A DNA stretch of 64,000 nucleotides, from NCBI GenBank assembly GCA_037445735.1, contig JBBIJY010000013.1, positions 1 to 64,000 on the forward strand, written 5' to 3'. The notes beneath the pieces were generated by a model, which saw nothing but the letters and a program-made list of their open reading frames with translations, did not search any database and was not told the DNA's origin. The stretch comes from Armatimonadota bacterium (GTDB taxonomy: Bacteria > Armatimonadota > Fimbriimonadia > Fimbriimonadales > GBS-DC). Position 1 is the stretch's first letter; every line of letters begins with the position of its first letter. The position numbers were made by a program, and so were the translations under genes. Positions 12,226-17,128 of this stretch are shown piece by piece.

Positions 12226-14058
12226 TTACTCCACCGTCACGCTCTTGGCGAGGTTGCGCGGCTGATCGATCTCGCAGCCGCGCAGTCGCGCCACATGGTA
12301 GGCAAAGAGCTGCAGCACGGGGATGGAGACCAGCGGCGAGAGTTCCTCCAGCGGCGGACGCGGCACTGTGATCGTGTAATCGGCTTCCTGCGGCAACAGC
12401 GCTTCGTCCTCATAGGTAACAAGCAGAATTGTGCCGCGCCGCGCCTTGATCTCTTTCATGTTGCCCAGAATCTTCTCGCGGGTGCGCTCCTGCGTGGCGA
12501 TGAACACGGCGACCACGCCTGGCTCCACCAGCGCGAGCGGTCCATGCTTCATCTCGCCTGCGGGGCACTCCTGCGTGGGCACATAGGCGATCTCTTTGAT
12601 TTTGAGTGCGCCCTCCATCGCGACCGCCGCGTCGATCCCGCGCCCCAGATAGAACGCCAGCGGCATCGAATGGAGCTGCTCGGCAATCTGGCGAACCTGC
12701 GGCTCGGTTTCGAGGCTGCGCGCGATCAGCGAGGGCATCTGCATCAGCCCTTTCACGCCCTCCGTGTAGGTCTGCATCGGCAGTGTGCCGTTGATGGCGG
12801 ACAGGTACAGCCCCAGCAGGTAGAGCAGGGCGACCTGCGTGCTGTAGGCTTTGGTGGACGCCACGCAGATTTCGGGACCCGCCTGCGTGTACAGCACATG
12901 GTCGCACTCGCGAGCGATGCTGCTGCCCACCACATTCACGATGCCGAGCGTGGTGTAGCCCGCCTCGCGGCACAGGCGCAGCGCGGCGAGCGTGTCGGCG
13001 GTCTCGCCCGATTGACTGATGAAAATCGCCAGCGTGTTGGGCTGAAGGATGGGATCGCCGTAGCGGAACTCCGAAGAGTAGTAGACCTCCACAGGTCGGC
13101 GCAGCCACCGCTCCAGCACATATTTGCCGATCAACCCCGCGTGATACGCCGTGCCACACGCCACAATCAGCATCCGCCGAAACTTCTGCCAGTCTTCGAC
13201 TTCGAGTTTGAGTTCAGGGAACTGGATGCCGCCGTTGGGCTTGAGCCGTCCGCGCAGGGTGTCGCGCACCGCTTCGGGCTGCTCCAGAATCTCCTTGATC
13301 ATAAAATGCGCGTGCCCGCCCTTCTCGGCAGCCTCGGCTGACCATTCGATCTGCACGGGCGGGCGCTCCACTGGCGAGCCGTCCAGTCGGAACAGGCGCA
13401 CCGAGTCGCGCGTGACCACGCCCAGATCGCCGTTCTCCAGCAGGATTACGCGCCGCGTGTAGGGTAGCAGCGCGGGGATGTCGGAGGCGATAAAGTTCTC
13501 GCCCTCACCCAGCCCGATCACAAGGGGCGAGTCGTTGCGGGCAACCACCACGCGGTCGGGATGGTCGGCAAACAGCACGGCAATCGCGTAGGAGCCGCGC
13601 ACGGGTTGCAACGCGCGTCGAACGGCTTCTTCGGGCGATTCGCACAGGGGCAGCTGCTCCTCGATCAGGTGCGCCAGCACTTCGGTGTCGGTCTCGGAGC
13701 TGAATCGGTGTCCGCGCGCGCTCAGCTCCTGGCGCAGCTCCAGATAGTTTTCGATGATGCCGTTATGCACGACAGCGACGCGCCCCTGCTCGTCGGTGTG
13801 GGGATGGGCGTTCGGGTCGTTCGGGATGCCGTGCGTCGCCCAGCGCGTGTGGGAGACCGCCAGCCCGTGCGCTTCAACGCCGTTCAGCAGCTCGCTCAGC
13901 TGCTGGATTTTGCCCGCGCGTTTCATCACCTGCAGGCAGTCGCCGCTCCAGAAGGCGACGCCCGCCGAATCGTAGCCCCGATATTCGAGGCGTCTCAGCG
14001 TGTCCAGCGCGACCTCTAACGGCGGTCGCGAGCCAATATAACCCGTGATACCGCACAT
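12226..14058 (-). CDS. glmS: Glutamine-fructose-6-phosphate aminotransferase
   Basis: MCGITGY, LEYRGYDSAG, HTRWATHG, SQSGETADT, PRNLAKSVTVE. Confidence 0.98.
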   Translation of the reverse strand: MCGITGYIGSRPPLEVALDTLRRLEYRGYDSAGVAFWSGDCLQVMKRAGKIQQLSELLNGVEAHGLAVSHTRWATHGIPNDPNAHPHTDEQGRVAVVHNGIIENYLELRQELSARGHRFSSETDTEVLAHLIEEQLPLCESPEEAVRRALQPVRGSYAIAVLFADHPDRVVVARNDSPLVIGLGEGENFIASDIPALLPYTRRVILLENGDLGVVTRDSVRLFRLDGSPVERPPVQIEWSAEAAEKGGHAHFMIKEILEQPEAVRDTLRGRLKPNGGIQFPELKLEVEDWQKFRRMLIVACGTAYHAGLIGKYVLERWLRRPVEVYYSSEFRYGDPILQPNTLAIFISQSGETADTLAALRLCREAGYTTLGIVNVVGSSIARECDHVLYTQAGPEICVASTKAYSTQVALLYLLGLYLSAINGTLPMQTYTEGVKGLMQMPSLIARSLETEPQVRQIAEQLHSMPLAFYLGRGIDAAVAMEGALKIKEIAYVPTQECPAGEMKHGPLALVEPGVVAVFIATQERTREKILGNMKEIKARRGTILLVTYEDEALLPQEADYTITVPRPPLEELSPLVSIPVLQLFAYHVARLRGCEIDQPRNLAKSVTVE

Positions 14059-14601: not shown

Positions 14602-16029
14602 TTATCGTTCGATGCGGACGCCGAACGCTGGCTGGTTGCGGCGGAAGGGGCTTTCGATGCCGCCCCACAGCAGAACATGTTCGGACACACGCCAGTTCAG
14701 GCGCAGGTTGCCCTGCCAGTCGTTCGGGTCGAACAGCTCCAGCGTCAGCAGTCCGCGTCCGCTGAACCTATAGTCTACCCCAACGCCAGGCTTGGCGGCA
14801 TACAGACCATAGCGCAGATGGAGCTGAGGTGAGAGGGGCGTGCCGTACTGGGCAATCAGCTTGTTGCCTTCGGTAAGGTCGTATAGCCCCAGCGACACCG
14901 TGCGCCGATCGCGCGTGAAGAAGGTCACCAGCACATCGGTGCGGTAGCGCTCGGTCTGTGCATTGAAGCCGAGATCGAGGCGATAGGTGGCGTCTTCGAA
15001 GCCGAGCGTGCGCAGGCTGACGGCGTTCTCCAGCGCATTATTCACCCGCTCGAAGGTGCTTTTCGCCTGCTGGATGACCGCTTTCGATTCAGTGACGGTC
15101 TCGTTGAGGTTGCGGGTGAGTTCGGTGGCGTTCTCCAGCACGGTTTCGGTCTTATCGGCGAGGGTGCTGGCGCGTTCGCTGAGCGTGCGCAGGTTATGGG
15201 CAGTCTGACGCACATCATTCTGCAGTTGCGGGTCGCTGACGAGCGCATTTACCTGCTGGAGCGCCGATTCAGCGCGTTCGGCGGCGGCGCGCGCGCTGGC
15301 AAGTGTCGCCTGAAGGTCGTCGCGCAGCTGCGGGTCGCTCAGCAGGCGGTTCGCGGTCTGCAGGGCGAGCCGCAGTTCGCGCGTCGCCGACGCCGCCTGA
15401 CCGAGCAGATGGCGGATGGTGGCGCGGTTCTCGGCAATAAGGCGGTCGGCTTGCGTGAGCAGGCGTGTGGTCTGCTCCGTTGCCCGCTCAACAGCGTCCA
15501 GCGTCTGAAGCAGGCTCTGGCGCAGCTGCTGGTCCTCAAGCAGGTGGCGCGCGGCAGCAAGCGTGCGGCGCAGCTCAACCAGGGTGCGTTCCGCCTGGGG
15601 CGTGAGCCGATTGAGTGCGGCGTTGAAATCGAGCGGGTTCTCGCCCACGAGGCGCTCGTTGGGGCGCAGGTAATCGGACACAGCGGTGGGCGGGATAATC
15701 TCCACGCGCGTTTCGGTGGGCAACAGCGTGCCACCAACAAGCCGAAAGGTGGAGCCACGCGGGATTCGGACCTCTTCGCGGATCGCCAGCGTCAGCTCGG
15801 CGACGGGCGGCGCGCCCACCAGCGCGATATCGCGCACGAAGCCGACTGGCACGCCCGCCATCAGCACCGACGCCCCCACCGACACATTGCGCGCATCGCT
15901 GAACTGCACATAGAGCCGATAGTGCCCCCGCTCCGAGAAACGCGCCTGCAAAAAGCGCAGCCCCGTTATCAGCATCGCGATGCCCAGCACCAGTATCGCG
16001 CCCACACGCGCCAGATCCGCCCGCATCAC
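14602..16029 (-). CDS. MlaD/MCE-family protein with long coiled coil and beta-rich C-terminus
   Basis: TM anchor, F.DA....GA.V..AGV.VG.V..I MCE motif, heptad region. Confidence 0.88.
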   Translation of the reverse strand: MMRADLARVGAILVLGIAMLITGLRFLQARFSERGHYRLYVQFSDARNVSVGASVLMAGVPVGFVRDIALVGAPPVAELTLAIREEVRIPRGSTFRLVGGTLLPTETRVEIIPPTAVSDYLRPNERLVGENPLDFNAALNRLTPQAERTLVELRRTLAAARHLLEDQQLRQSLLQTLDAVERATEQTTRLLTQADRLIAENRATIRHLLGQAASATRELRLALQTANRLLSDPQLRDDLQATLASARAAAERAESALQQVNALVSDPQLQNDVRQTAHNLRTLSERASTLADKTETVLENATELTRNLNETVTESKAVIQQAKSTFERVNNALENAVSLRTLGFEDATYRLDLGFNAQTERYRTDVLVTFFTRDRRTVSLGLYDLTEGNKLIAQYGTPLSPQLHLRYGLYAAKPGVGVDYRFSGRGLLTLELFDPNDWQGNLRLNWRVSEHVLLWGGIESPFRRNQPAFGVRIER

Positions 16030-16041
16030 CGTCTTTAATTC

Positions 16042-16071
16042 GTTTCAATCCCTCACAGGTAGGCTACAAAT
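16042..16071 (-). CRISPR. Solitary CRISPR-type repeat (no spacer or second repeat, no cas genes in window)
   Basis: Minus strand ATTTGTAGCCTACCTGTGAGGGATTGAAAC, 30 nt ending in ATTGAAAC; recognised as the GTTTnTAGCCTACCTATGAGGGATTGAAAC-like type I-B/III repeat family. Confidence 0.75.
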
Positions 16072-16078
16072 CAGCCCC

Positions 16079-16108
16079 ACTATACCCCATCAATGACAGT
16101 AAAGTCAA
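16079..16108 (-). promoter_or_regulatory. Sigma70 promoter firing into the solitary repeat and mce gene
   Basis: TTGACT (16108-16103) - 18 nt - TATAGT (16084-16079), 7 nt upstream of the repeat; A-tracts further upstream. Confidence 0.7.
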
Positions 16109-16276
16109 GCGTTATAACCGCAAACAGGCGCTTTTTGCCTGCTTTTTGAGAGACCTGCAGGATGGCGCCGCCGCTCTGCAAGCAGGTGTGCTGGTAGAGA
16201 TTCGCGAATACATGGGCGCCGTTACATAGCCAGGCAGGAGACTCGCCTCGCAGGGCGAATCGCGCCTGTTAGAGGC

Positions 16277-17128
16277 GTGGCAATGATAACGGCGAGCAAG
16301 CAGTACGGGCTGCGACCAGAGGAGGTCGCCTTCTATCACGAGAATGGCTACCTGCACCTGCCGGGCGTGCTGGCGCCTGAAGAGGCGGCGTATTTGCGCG
16401 AGGAGGCGCACGCGCTGATTCGGCGACTGATGACAGCCTGGGACGACGAGCAGGCGGTTCAGGCACGATGGGGCAGCGCCCAGCTCATCACCGAGATGCC
16501 TACCAGCCTGCTGCACTGCCATAATGTGCAGTTCCACAGCGCGGCGTTCACCCGCCTGATTTGCGACCCGCGCCTGACCGACCGAATCGCGGATCTGATC
16601 GGACCCAATATCCAGCTGCATCACACCAAGCTCTTTATCAAGCCGCCAGAGCGTGGTGCGCCCTTCCCGCTCCATCAGGACTACCCCTACTTCCCCCACG
16701 AGAAACACACCATGCTGGCGGCGGTGTTCTTCTTCGATGACGCGCCGCCTGAAAAGGGCTGCCTGTGTGTGGTGCCCGGCAGCCACCGGCTGGGACCGCT
16801 GCCGCATGACCCCGAAGGCGGCTGGCACCTGCCGATTGAGCAGTACCCGCTGGAGATGGCAATCCCCATCCCCACGCAAGCAGGCGATGTGGTGGTGTTC
16901 AACTACCTCACCATTCACGGCTCCGGGGTCAACCGCACGCAGGAGGCGCGCACCACCTTGCTGGTGCAGATGCGCGACCCGACTGACCACCCAACGAAGG
17001 CGGTTCACCTGTCGCGCGGGCAGGGCATGATGCTGCGCGGCATCGACCCGCAAGCCGACGCGGGTCCGCACACCGATTCAACATCACGCTACCTGAAGCA
17101 ACTAACGGAGTCCAGACAGGGAGGCTGA
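16277..17128 (+). CDS. Phytanoyl-CoA dioxygenase (PhyH) family 2OG-Fe(II) oxygenase
   Basis: FYHENGYL, KPP..G..FPLHQD, GCL.VVPGSH, HGSG.N....R. Confidence 0.9.
   Translation: MAMITASKQYGLRPEEVAFYHENGYLHLPGVLAPEEAAYLREEAHALIRRLMTAWDDEQAVQARWGSAQLITEMPTSLLHCHNVQFHSAAFTRLICDPRLTDRIADLIGPNIQLHHTKLFIKPPERGAPFPLHQDYPYFPHEKHTMLAAVFFFDDAPPEKGCLCVVPGSHRLGPLPHDPEGGWHLPIEQYPLEMAIPIPTQAGDVVVFNYLTIHGSGVNRTQEARTTLLVQMRDPTDHPTKAVHLSRGQGMMLRGIDPQADAGPHTDSTSRYLKQLTESRQGG

Follow-up and report, generated by a model that had tools for sequence, protein, structure and literature searches.

Organization of the mce locus

The window considered here, that is the whole stretch of DNA analysed (64,000 nt), corresponds to contig C13 of G000, an Armatimonadota metagenome-assembled genome (MAG) of 2.78 Mb in 59 contigs. 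Its minus strand carries mce, which codes for a 475-aa protein with an MlaD/MCE domain (14602..16029; GTG at 16029 or ATG at 16026, the latter being the conserved start), followed after 18 nt by rplI, for ribosomal protein L9 (14119..14583), and after a further 60 nt by glmS (12226..14058). The subject of this work is the DNA immediately upstream of mce, where a single repeat of the CRISPR type (named for short palindromic repeats, clustered and regularly interspaced) stands behind a promoter, and the way in which the two may have come to head these genes.

The promoter is of the sigma-70 type, TTGACT-N18-TATAGT (16079..16108, minus strand), with the -35 box TTGACT at 16108-16103 and the -10 box TATAGT at 16084-16079, separated by 18 nt; it was read from the sequence and recovered by a promoter scan and by comparison with CRISPR leaders. 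It is the sole sigma-70-like site in 15800-16500, with 10/12 matches to the boxes (shuffle mean 0.2). On the same strand the promoter is followed by the heptanucleotide GGGGCTG (16072..16078), a probable remnant of the last 7 nt of a CRISPR leader (canonical GGGGTTG), then by the solitary 30-nt type I-B repeat, ATTTGTAGCCTACCTGTGAGGGATTGAAAC (16042..16071), and by a linker of 12 nt (16041-16030) that leads to the start codon. The final 8 nt of the repeat, ATTGAAAC (16042..16049), would be the 5' handle of a CRISPR RNA (crRNA), and the 36 nt directly 3' of the repeat (16006..16041), consisting of the linker, the start codon and the first mce codons, would occupy the position of a spacer; this segment is called the pseudo-spacer below.

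Transcription should start at about 16072/16071, as predicted from the distance to the -10 box; with the promoter only 7 nt away, the mRNA would thus begin with the repeat, which would form its first 30 nt. Cas6 of type I-B and type III systems cuts 8 nt from the 3' end of the repeat; from this general knowledge, a cut at 16050|16049 is plausible, and the processed 5' end at 16049 would read AUUGAAAC... on the minus strand. No terminator was predicted between the repeat and mce by a terminator scan, and no terminator-like site lies between mce, rplI and glmS, the single site of the scan being inside glmS (13045-13029) and below the shuffle mean; the three genes may well be co-transcribed. The 5' untranslated region (UTR) of mce has no significant structure (folding z = -1.1 and -0.05).

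The original prediction had described the solitary 30-nt repeat, its promoter and the spacings of 7 and 12 nt before mce, with a transcript beginning at the repeat, and had reported neither a second repeat nor a cas gene in the 64 kb. This anatomy is confirmed on the minus strand, and the position of the promoter agrees with the proposed start. At up to three mismatches the repeat occurs once in the window (0 expected), and at up to seven it is still the only copy on contig C13, where regularly interspaced copies are absent, so that there is no array; in a search of the whole genome, Cas6 and Cas1 matches were found only on contig C2, hence none in the window. Raw reads concealing a multi-spacer array had been considered as well. 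A contig of 4576 nt from run X1, which may be the source of the assembly, covers 15300-16800 with 0 differences and flat depth, and a contig of 3914 nt from run X2 crosses the repeat with a variant like that of the related genome G002; since in both runs a contig crosses the repeat and shows no additional unit, no such array is hidden at mce and an assembly collapse is ruled out. Among the sequencing runs searched for this DNA, none of RNA was found to contain it.

The CRISPR system of the genome

G000 encodes one type I-B operon (C2:49276-56928), with the order cas6-cas8b?-cas7-cas5-cas3-cas4-cas1, in which the cas8b position is taken by a gene for 487 aa of unassigned family. No Cas10 was found in G000, with no Cmr2 match and only weak, sub-threshold HD-like matches to Csm1, and a type III system was rejected on these grounds. 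Arrays and mini-arrays built on the repeat GTTTGTAGCCTACCTCTGAGGGATTGAAAC are present on C20, C41, C45 and C9; both the arrays and the cas6 gene for which the original prediction had suggested a search exist elsewhere in the genome. The mce repeat is identical to the array repeat at 28/30 positions, and against Rfam it matches CRISPR-DR2 with 37.9 bits (E = 6.8e-5), barely over the gathering score of 37. Besides the copy on C13, solitary repeats are found on C21 (the same variant as at mce), C18 and C10 (degenerate). Positions 2-30 of the mce repeat are the array repeat of sister genera (the G16 form), whose Cas6 proteins are 76-77% identical to that of G000. Leaders in this system lie upstream of the GTTTG end of the repeat, so that the mce repeat reads in the same sense as mce.

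A target in trans for the pseudo-spacer was sought and not found: for the 40 nt after the mce repeat, G000 holds elsewhere only chance internal matches of 11-17 nt, none anchored at the 5' seed. When 142 spacers were compared with G000 and the retrieved loci, they matched the arrays themselves and, in addition, gave one partial 26-nt match (q11-36), which connects a spacer of the related genome G001 with G000 C26 and C50.

Relation of the promoter to CRISPR leaders

The 30-mer of the mce promoter agrees at 27/30 positions with each of three canonical CRISPR leaders of G000, which are its nearest matches in the genome, and the 7 nt before the repeat agree at 6/7 positions with the leader end GGGGTTG. 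In the canonical leaders of G000 about 120 nt separate TATAGT from the first repeat, and GGGGTTG abuts that repeat; at mce only GGGGCTG is left between promoter and repeat, which implies an internal deletion of the leader, with approximately 110 nt missing. In the family, the promoter motif was located at 30 loci: the first repeat follows 76-121 nt downstream in 16 of them, and the other 14 comprise the two mce loci (7 nt to the repeat), three loci that are cut short and nine that head other genes. A distance of 7 nt is found only at the two mce loci among the promoter-motif loci of the family. Derivation of the mce promoter from a CRISPR leader is probable on these homologies.

Two broader classes were rejected. 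The 46-mer containing the promoter is unique in G000, so that it is not part of a dispersed cassette, and a recurrent arrangement of a promoter abutting a repeat is not supported either, since the pattern GGTATANT-N1-30-TGTAGCCTACCT occurs in 3/151 genomes of the order; two of these hits fall at the mce locus, and the third belongs to a spacer within an array.

Some observations on promoters in this lineage are added here. The consensus shared genome-wide by strong promoters, ccccTTGACTTTTnTGTCAnnnnnnGGGTATAAT, is unusually long and includes a conserved spacer region (for example at C5:27525; C9:49913, tRNA genes; C10:92); this points to promoters of extended architecture, or to a common operator, in the lineage. 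A dispersed GC-rich element of about 60 nt (GGGGTGAGGGGCATCCTTGCCTCTGGTTGGATTTTTCGAACAGCCTC), probably of the CCCTCACCC-box family, has 29 copies genome-wide (for example at C20:39816, C9:63017 and C27:10781), one of them in the window at C13:6231-6277; by eye, at least 10 copies are immediately upstream of strong promoters, and in G002 one copy lies upstream of the mce promoter, at the contig end. A degenerate CRISPR leader at C9:45236-45265 retains the promoter and the first part of the leader, with no recognisable repeat after it.

Conservation of the locus in related genomes

In G002, the closest relative (about 95% identical), mce is likewise headed by this promoter, by GGGGCTG and, directly before the gene, by a degenerate repeat; the G002 Cas6 is 96% identical to that of G000. 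The congeners G001 and G003 have no repeat upstream of mce; their upstream region ends with ...cattcgCCATAATTAAAGC GCG ATG, and their unrearranged state can be written as CCA|TAATTAAAG...ATG. Homology among all four genomes begins at AATTAAAG, directly after the mce repeat. In eight further relatives, belonging to other genera, the mce locus is without the promoter-repeat structure, and the upstream regions of the repeat-less relatives end with ...gCCATAATTAAAGC GCG ATG or with unrelated short sequences. Overall, among 11 relatives' loci and 10 public loci (overlapping sets), a repeat upstream of mce was seen only in the G002 form, and no relative among the loci examined has a full array there. 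The synteny of mce and rplI is kept in 10/11 relatives' loci, and glmS follows rplI in 3/11, the other loci being cut short.

The native mce promoter is gone in G000, its -10 box, CATAAT, being destroyed. Relatives' mce loci (L029, L028, L033, L039, L041, L042 and L048) have -10-like boxes only 6-10 nt before the start codon. The native mce mRNA is suggested to be leaderless or nearly so, in contrast with a predicted UTR of about 45 nt in G000 and G002.

The comparison of G000 with G002 reveals different rates of change in the segments of the locus. In the promoter, none of the 44 aligned nt is substituted; of the 30 repeat positions 3 are substituted and 2 gapped, and of the 12 linker positions 1 is substituted and 3 are gapped. 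In the mce coding sequence 64/1428 positions differ, and at third codon positions 47/476 (9.9%); at this third-position rate, the chance of 0/44 is about 0.01. As far as the alignment tells, the promoter is constrained and the repeat drifts at about the neutral rate, with no selection on it visible.

On the other side of the promoter, a gene for a PhyH-family dioxygenase (16277..17128, plus strand) is divergent from mce in G000; it is not beside mce in G002, G001 and G012. From the PhyH-side homology to the promoter there is a G000-specific stretch of about 41 nt (16118..16158, strand not assigned), for which a search in G001-G003 returned nothing; a terminator-like hairpin and its T-run lie within it (16125-16141, plus strand), and no gene enters them from either strand.

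The PAM and the junctions of repeats with host DNA

The protospacer-adjacent motif (PAM) of the system was taken from protospacers of G011 array spacers, independently of the junctions. Three such protospacers, with matches of 35/35, 33/35 and 34/36, have the 5' flanks CCG, CCG and CCA, giving CCN as the PAM of this CRISPR family (3/3 close protospacers; 3/4 when a tRNA-like candidate is counted). Two G011 array spacers target the phage-like contig G018:C194 (L125:1-12000), which bears genes for a large terminase, an endolysin, a tape measure protein and a DNA methyltransferase, and both protospacers are flanked by CCG. The tRNA-like match, of a G001 spacer, lies at G007:C205:8723-8758 (L149) and may come from an integrative element carrying a tRNA fragment.

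For seven places where the 3' end of a repeat joins host DNA in G000, the corresponding 3 nt were read in the nearest unrearranged relative. They are CCA at mce (C13), as read in G001 and G003, CCG at ubiD (C21), CCA at the C18 gene, CCG at uvrA (C10), CCA at pdxT (C9), CCC in G002 and CCA in G001 at anmK (C45), and CCT at a pstS-like gene (C45). Thus, all the testable repeat-host junctions of the G000 genome (7/7) follow CCN, with the mce junction lying exactly 3' of CCA, in PAM position. The chance of CC at a given site is 0.079, which for the four junctions that were read after the hypothesis was set, those of uvrA, pdxT, anmK and the pstS-like gene, amounts to about 4e-5.

Like that at mce, the other solitary repeats meet host genes precisely at one end of the repeat; the junctions differ in what was joined. 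On C21 (33239-33417) a leader and a repeat abut the 3' end of ubiD on the opposite strand, and G002 has an intact ubiD without CRISPR DNA; on C10 (55544-55573) a degenerate leader and repeat abut the 3' end of uvrA, again on the opposite strand. As a consequence of the antisense repeat, both proteins gained C-terminal tails starting with FQS.... On C18 (15616-15645; L022) a single canonical repeat stands in place of about 817 nt of a gene whose intact form is kept in G002 (C13:21512-22330), and the TAG of the repeat now stops the upstream open reading frame; the 36 nt before the repeat are preceded by CCT, and both sides fit spacer boundaries with CCN PAMs. On C9 (97877-98675; L024:7878-8676) pdxT (SNO glutaminase, 189 aa), whose sole in-frame start is a TTG inside the handle of the repeat, is fused to a full leader with a repeat, a scrambled unit of 25 nt and another repeat; G002 reads ATGACCA|TCGG at this site, with no CRISPR DNA. 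Two mini-arrays are found on C45 (4385-4480 and 10529-10822): one truncates anmK, with the loss of about 134 N-terminal profile positions, and the other, with spacers of 32 and 21 nt, lies 65 nt upstream of a PBP-like (pstS-type) gene; with up to three mismatches allowed, the neighbouring G002 loci contain no counterpart of the other spacers of the C45 mini-arrays.

A self-spacer identical to the fused host sequence does not exist at mce, where the leader abuts the repeat, and remnants of such spacers are found at pdxT and the pstS-like gene. The unit preceding the final repeat measures 21 nt in the pstS-like mini-array, and its last 17 nt are the same as flank positions 20-36; in the pdxT mini-array the corresponding unit, of 25 nt, closes with 9 nt that coincide with flank positions 27-35. 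Each of the two units preserves the 3' part of a spacer that corresponded to the opening 35-36 nt of the flanking chromosomal DNA, and both are, to judge from these identities, self-derived spacer remnants standing beside their chromosomal copies.

The DNA on the other side of the PAM was traced as well. Compared with G002, the PAM-upstream DNA is absent from G000 at the pdxT, pstS-like, anmK and ubiD junctions (4/5 compared); that of the uvrA junction is on another G000 contig, and so is the mce upstream gene as derived from G001. In type I systems Cas3 degrades the PAM-upstream side, and the loss of this DNA fits the direction of such erosion. The hypothesis that a leader-repeat cassette had simply inserted at CCN sites was rejected, since the PAM-upstream DNA is never found beside the leader.

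Origin of the mce promoter and 5' UTR

We consider it probable, although well short of certain, that the repeat and promoter upstream of mce are the scar of an attack by the cell's own CRISPR system on this site, and that this scar now provides mce-rplI-glmS with their promoter and 5' UTR. Before G000 and G002 diverged, the -10 box of the original mce promoter would have contained a CCA PAM (gCCA|TAATTAAAG), and in a type I-B array the repeat next to the leader would have become fused, at its 3' end, with the sequence just 3' of CCA. Two routes for this joining can be envisaged: a new self-spacer may have recombined with the chromosomal protospacer, by crossover or single-strand annealing, after Cas3 had eroded the PAM-upstream side; or the adaptation machinery may have directly attached a PAM-trimmed chromosomal end. 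In both cases the PAM is lost, so that autoimmunity would end. The joining would also have destroyed the native mce promoter, leaving transcription to start from the leader-type TTGACT-N18-TATAGT; a later deletion of roughly 110-115 nt would then have moved this promoter to 7 nt from the repeat, and the promoter would have been retained under selection. Cas6 is probably able to cut the resulting mRNA 8 nt from the 3' end of the repeat, apparently as a by-product and not as a selected function.

Several points weigh against this reconstruction. The tandem order of self-spacer remnant, repeat and chromosomal copy would not be explained by a single crossover, and for mce itself G000 contains neither a remnant self-spacer nor a reciprocal junction. 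The ancestral state of mce was read from genomes that are about 20% diverged, and the first base of the pseudo-spacer differs (G vs T). As to the PAM, the fourth candidate protospacer, that of the G001 spacer (33/36, tRNA-like), is flanked by ACA and not by CCN; the trailer flanks of the C20 and C41 arrays, which have no colinear homologue in the congeners, were left out of the junction count. The promoter motif also precedes tRNA and other genes in G000, the next-best match of the mce promoter in this genome is a non-CRISPR promoter (26/30), and the motif is, by its distribution, the strong-promoter consensus of the lineage; since the mce promoter fits this general consensus, its origin from a leader is likely but unproven. 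Finally, the test for selection compares two haplotypes only, and Cas6 might accept the repeat with its altered positions (1, 3, 19 and the 3' end).

A different reading, central to the original prediction, is that of an adaptive 5' UTR, in which the repeat is maintained because Cas6, by binding or cleavage, or Cascade, by sitting on the handle, governs how stable the mce-rplI-glmS mRNA is or how well it is translated; envelope and ribosome genes would in this way be tied to CRISPR activity. The promoter is indeed placed so that the RNA begins at the repeat, the repeat outlasted the leader deletion that took all else between it and the promoter, and a Cas6 gene is present both in G000 and, 96% identical, in G002. 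Moreover, positions 2-30 of the repeat are used as array repeat by sister genera with a 76-77% identical Cas6, and neither the differences from the cognate repeat nor the changes in G002 (1, 3, 19) touch the small stem that is predicted or the first 6-7 bases of the handle. However, the 42 nt of repeat and linker have taken 4 substitutions and lost 5 bases, a rate at least as high as the neutral one, against 0 changes in the promoter, and the arrangement is limited to one lineage (1/11 relatives' loci), its short promoter-repeat form being found outside arrays in 2/151 genomes; the other solitary repeats occupy sites with evidently no regulatory role, for example antisense to the 3' ends of ubiD and uvrA or within broken genes, and the structure of the UTR is not significant (z = -1.1). 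A regulatory device coupling Cas6 or Cascade to mce expression is thus unsupported and unlikely, and the near-neutral repeat of the G000/G002 lineage is better seen as a one-off.

It had also been proposed that a leader and first repeat were left behind by the collapse of an array and now supply the operon promoter. The second half of this proposal is supported by the leader-like promoter, the loss of the native one and the conservation of the promoter beside a decaying repeat. As for the first half, an ordinary array upstream of mce would have collapsed by repeat-repeat recombination or illegitimate deletion, with no self-spacer and with a merely coincidental CCA; arrays do decay in this lineage, as the degenerate leaders and the solitary or degenerate repeats at several G000 loci indicate, and the 3' end of the repeat resembles the native sequence ATTAAAGC at 6/8 positions, a microhomology that could guide a deletion. 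Against such a plain relic stand the seven of seven testable junctions after CCN, at 0.079 per site and with the four prospective ones alone at about 4e-5, the self-spacer remnants at two sister junctions and the lack of any array or repeat near mce in the other relatives' loci examined; the link of the junction to the PAM makes an origin by plain array collapse very unlikely. The proposal that remains is a chromosomal Cas decoy, an expressed repeat that soaks up Cas6 or Cas7 and dampens the host's own CRISPR system. Its form, a solitary repeat with a strong promoter, is that of viral RNA anti-CRISPRs (Racrs) as portrayed in the parts of the sources used here (PMC10651486; PMC11656645), but the mce repeat is surrounded by housekeeping genes rather than by a mobile element, it has no terminator of its own and would therefore be part of an mRNA rather than a small RNA, and it decays at the neutral rate, which together leave the decoy with a very slight probability.

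Possible consequences of the proposed array-chromosome fusions

Self-targeting spacers are usually seen as lethal accidents, which the cell escapes by mutation, by deletion or by loss of cas genes. In G000 a further outcome can be recognised, in which the array appears to be the repair partner and a leader with a repeat is welded to a host gene at the PAM; the host genes now headed by CRISPR leaders and repeats are mce-rplI-glmS, pdxT and the pstS-like gene. If the self-targeting origin is true, it would explain how solitary (ectopic) repeats arise and why small arrays with near-identical leaders are scattered around a genome, and it would mean that housekeeping genes can have their promoters exchanged as a result of CRISPR autoimmunity. 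Its signature, a PAM at the repeat-host junctions in the unrearranged relative, can be screened for in any genome collection. At mce itself, a genuine CRISPR repeat is present in the predicted mRNA leader, but the promoter is the part under selection.

A more far-reaching possibility, which we hold to be speculative and rather improbable, is that these fusions are more than scars: the expression of housekeeping genes from CRISPR-leader promoters, with Cas6 sites in the transcripts, would then link the physiology of the host with the CRISPR system, as a natural form of co-regulation or addiction. More generally, type I autoimmunity repaired through array spacers as homology would spread leaders and arrays and rewire promoters.

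Comparison with known systems

A literature search, which covered articles without their supplementary files, returned no report of an array-chromosome fusion at a PAM or of a leader replacing a promoter, and nothing on point for chromosomal spacer-protospacer recombination or for host mRNAs processed by Cas6. Synthetic Csy4/Cas6 sites serve as 5' UTR insulators. Similarly, at mce a Cas6-type site is placed at the predicted mRNA start, where the mRNA, once cut, would have a defined 5'-OH end lying upstream of the ribosome-binding region; differently from the engineered insulators, the mce arrangement would have arisen by accident, and its site is predicted from sequence.

Ectopic repeats can give rise to crRNA-like regulators, as described, in the portions of the literature drawn on here, for CreA of CreTA, for cas-regulating mini-arrays and for scaRNA (PMC9458426; PMC10120712). 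The mce repeat resembles those regulators in being outside an array, with its own promoter and degenerate with respect to the array repeat, and a type I-B Cascade would read the sequence after it as a pseudo-spacer. Unlike CreA and the cas-regulating RNAs as they are depicted there, it is not in or near the cas locus, the repeat being on C13 and the cas operon on C2; unlike CreA, it consists of one repeat and not two, is fused to a protein-coding operon and has a pseudo-spacer without a partially complementary target elsewhere in G000. Its conservation, moreover, was not found beyond one lineage, which is a further difference from the regulators covered by these sources.

Solitary repeat units of viruses act as Racrs, according to the sections of the reports considered (PMC10651486; PMC8616872; PMC11656645). 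The mce locus likewise has a single repeat unit that matches the host CRISPR repeat and is located downstream of a promoter. Differently from the viral units of those accounts, it is chromosomal, flanked by mce-rplI-glmS and the PhyH gene and not on a virus or mobile element, and it is predicted to be part of an mRNA leader, with no indication of an inhibitory role. By its features the mce locus belongs neither to the viral units nor to the crRNA-like regulators.

The known escapes from self-targeting include, in the excerpts of the sources at hand, mutation, deletion, rearrangement, spacer loss, PAM mutation, cas loss and anti-CRISPR (Acr) proteins (PMC6990116; PMC3630108; PMC7521656). As in those escapes, the target is changed in G000, with the PAM replaced and the PAM-upstream DNA lost; unlike the escapes listed there, the repair partner appears to be a CRISPR array, which leaves leader-repeat-gene fusions exactly at the PAM. 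A related process, spacer-mediated recombination between phages and CRISPR-cas loci, was reportedly described by Varble et al. in 2019, a study cited in PMC10608574. In both cases spacer and protospacer would provide the short homology through which CRISPR DNA becomes linked to other DNA; in the former the partner is a phage and the outcome is transduction, whereas in G000 the partner would be the host chromosome, and the outcome the replacement of promoters and the dispersal of leaders and arrays.

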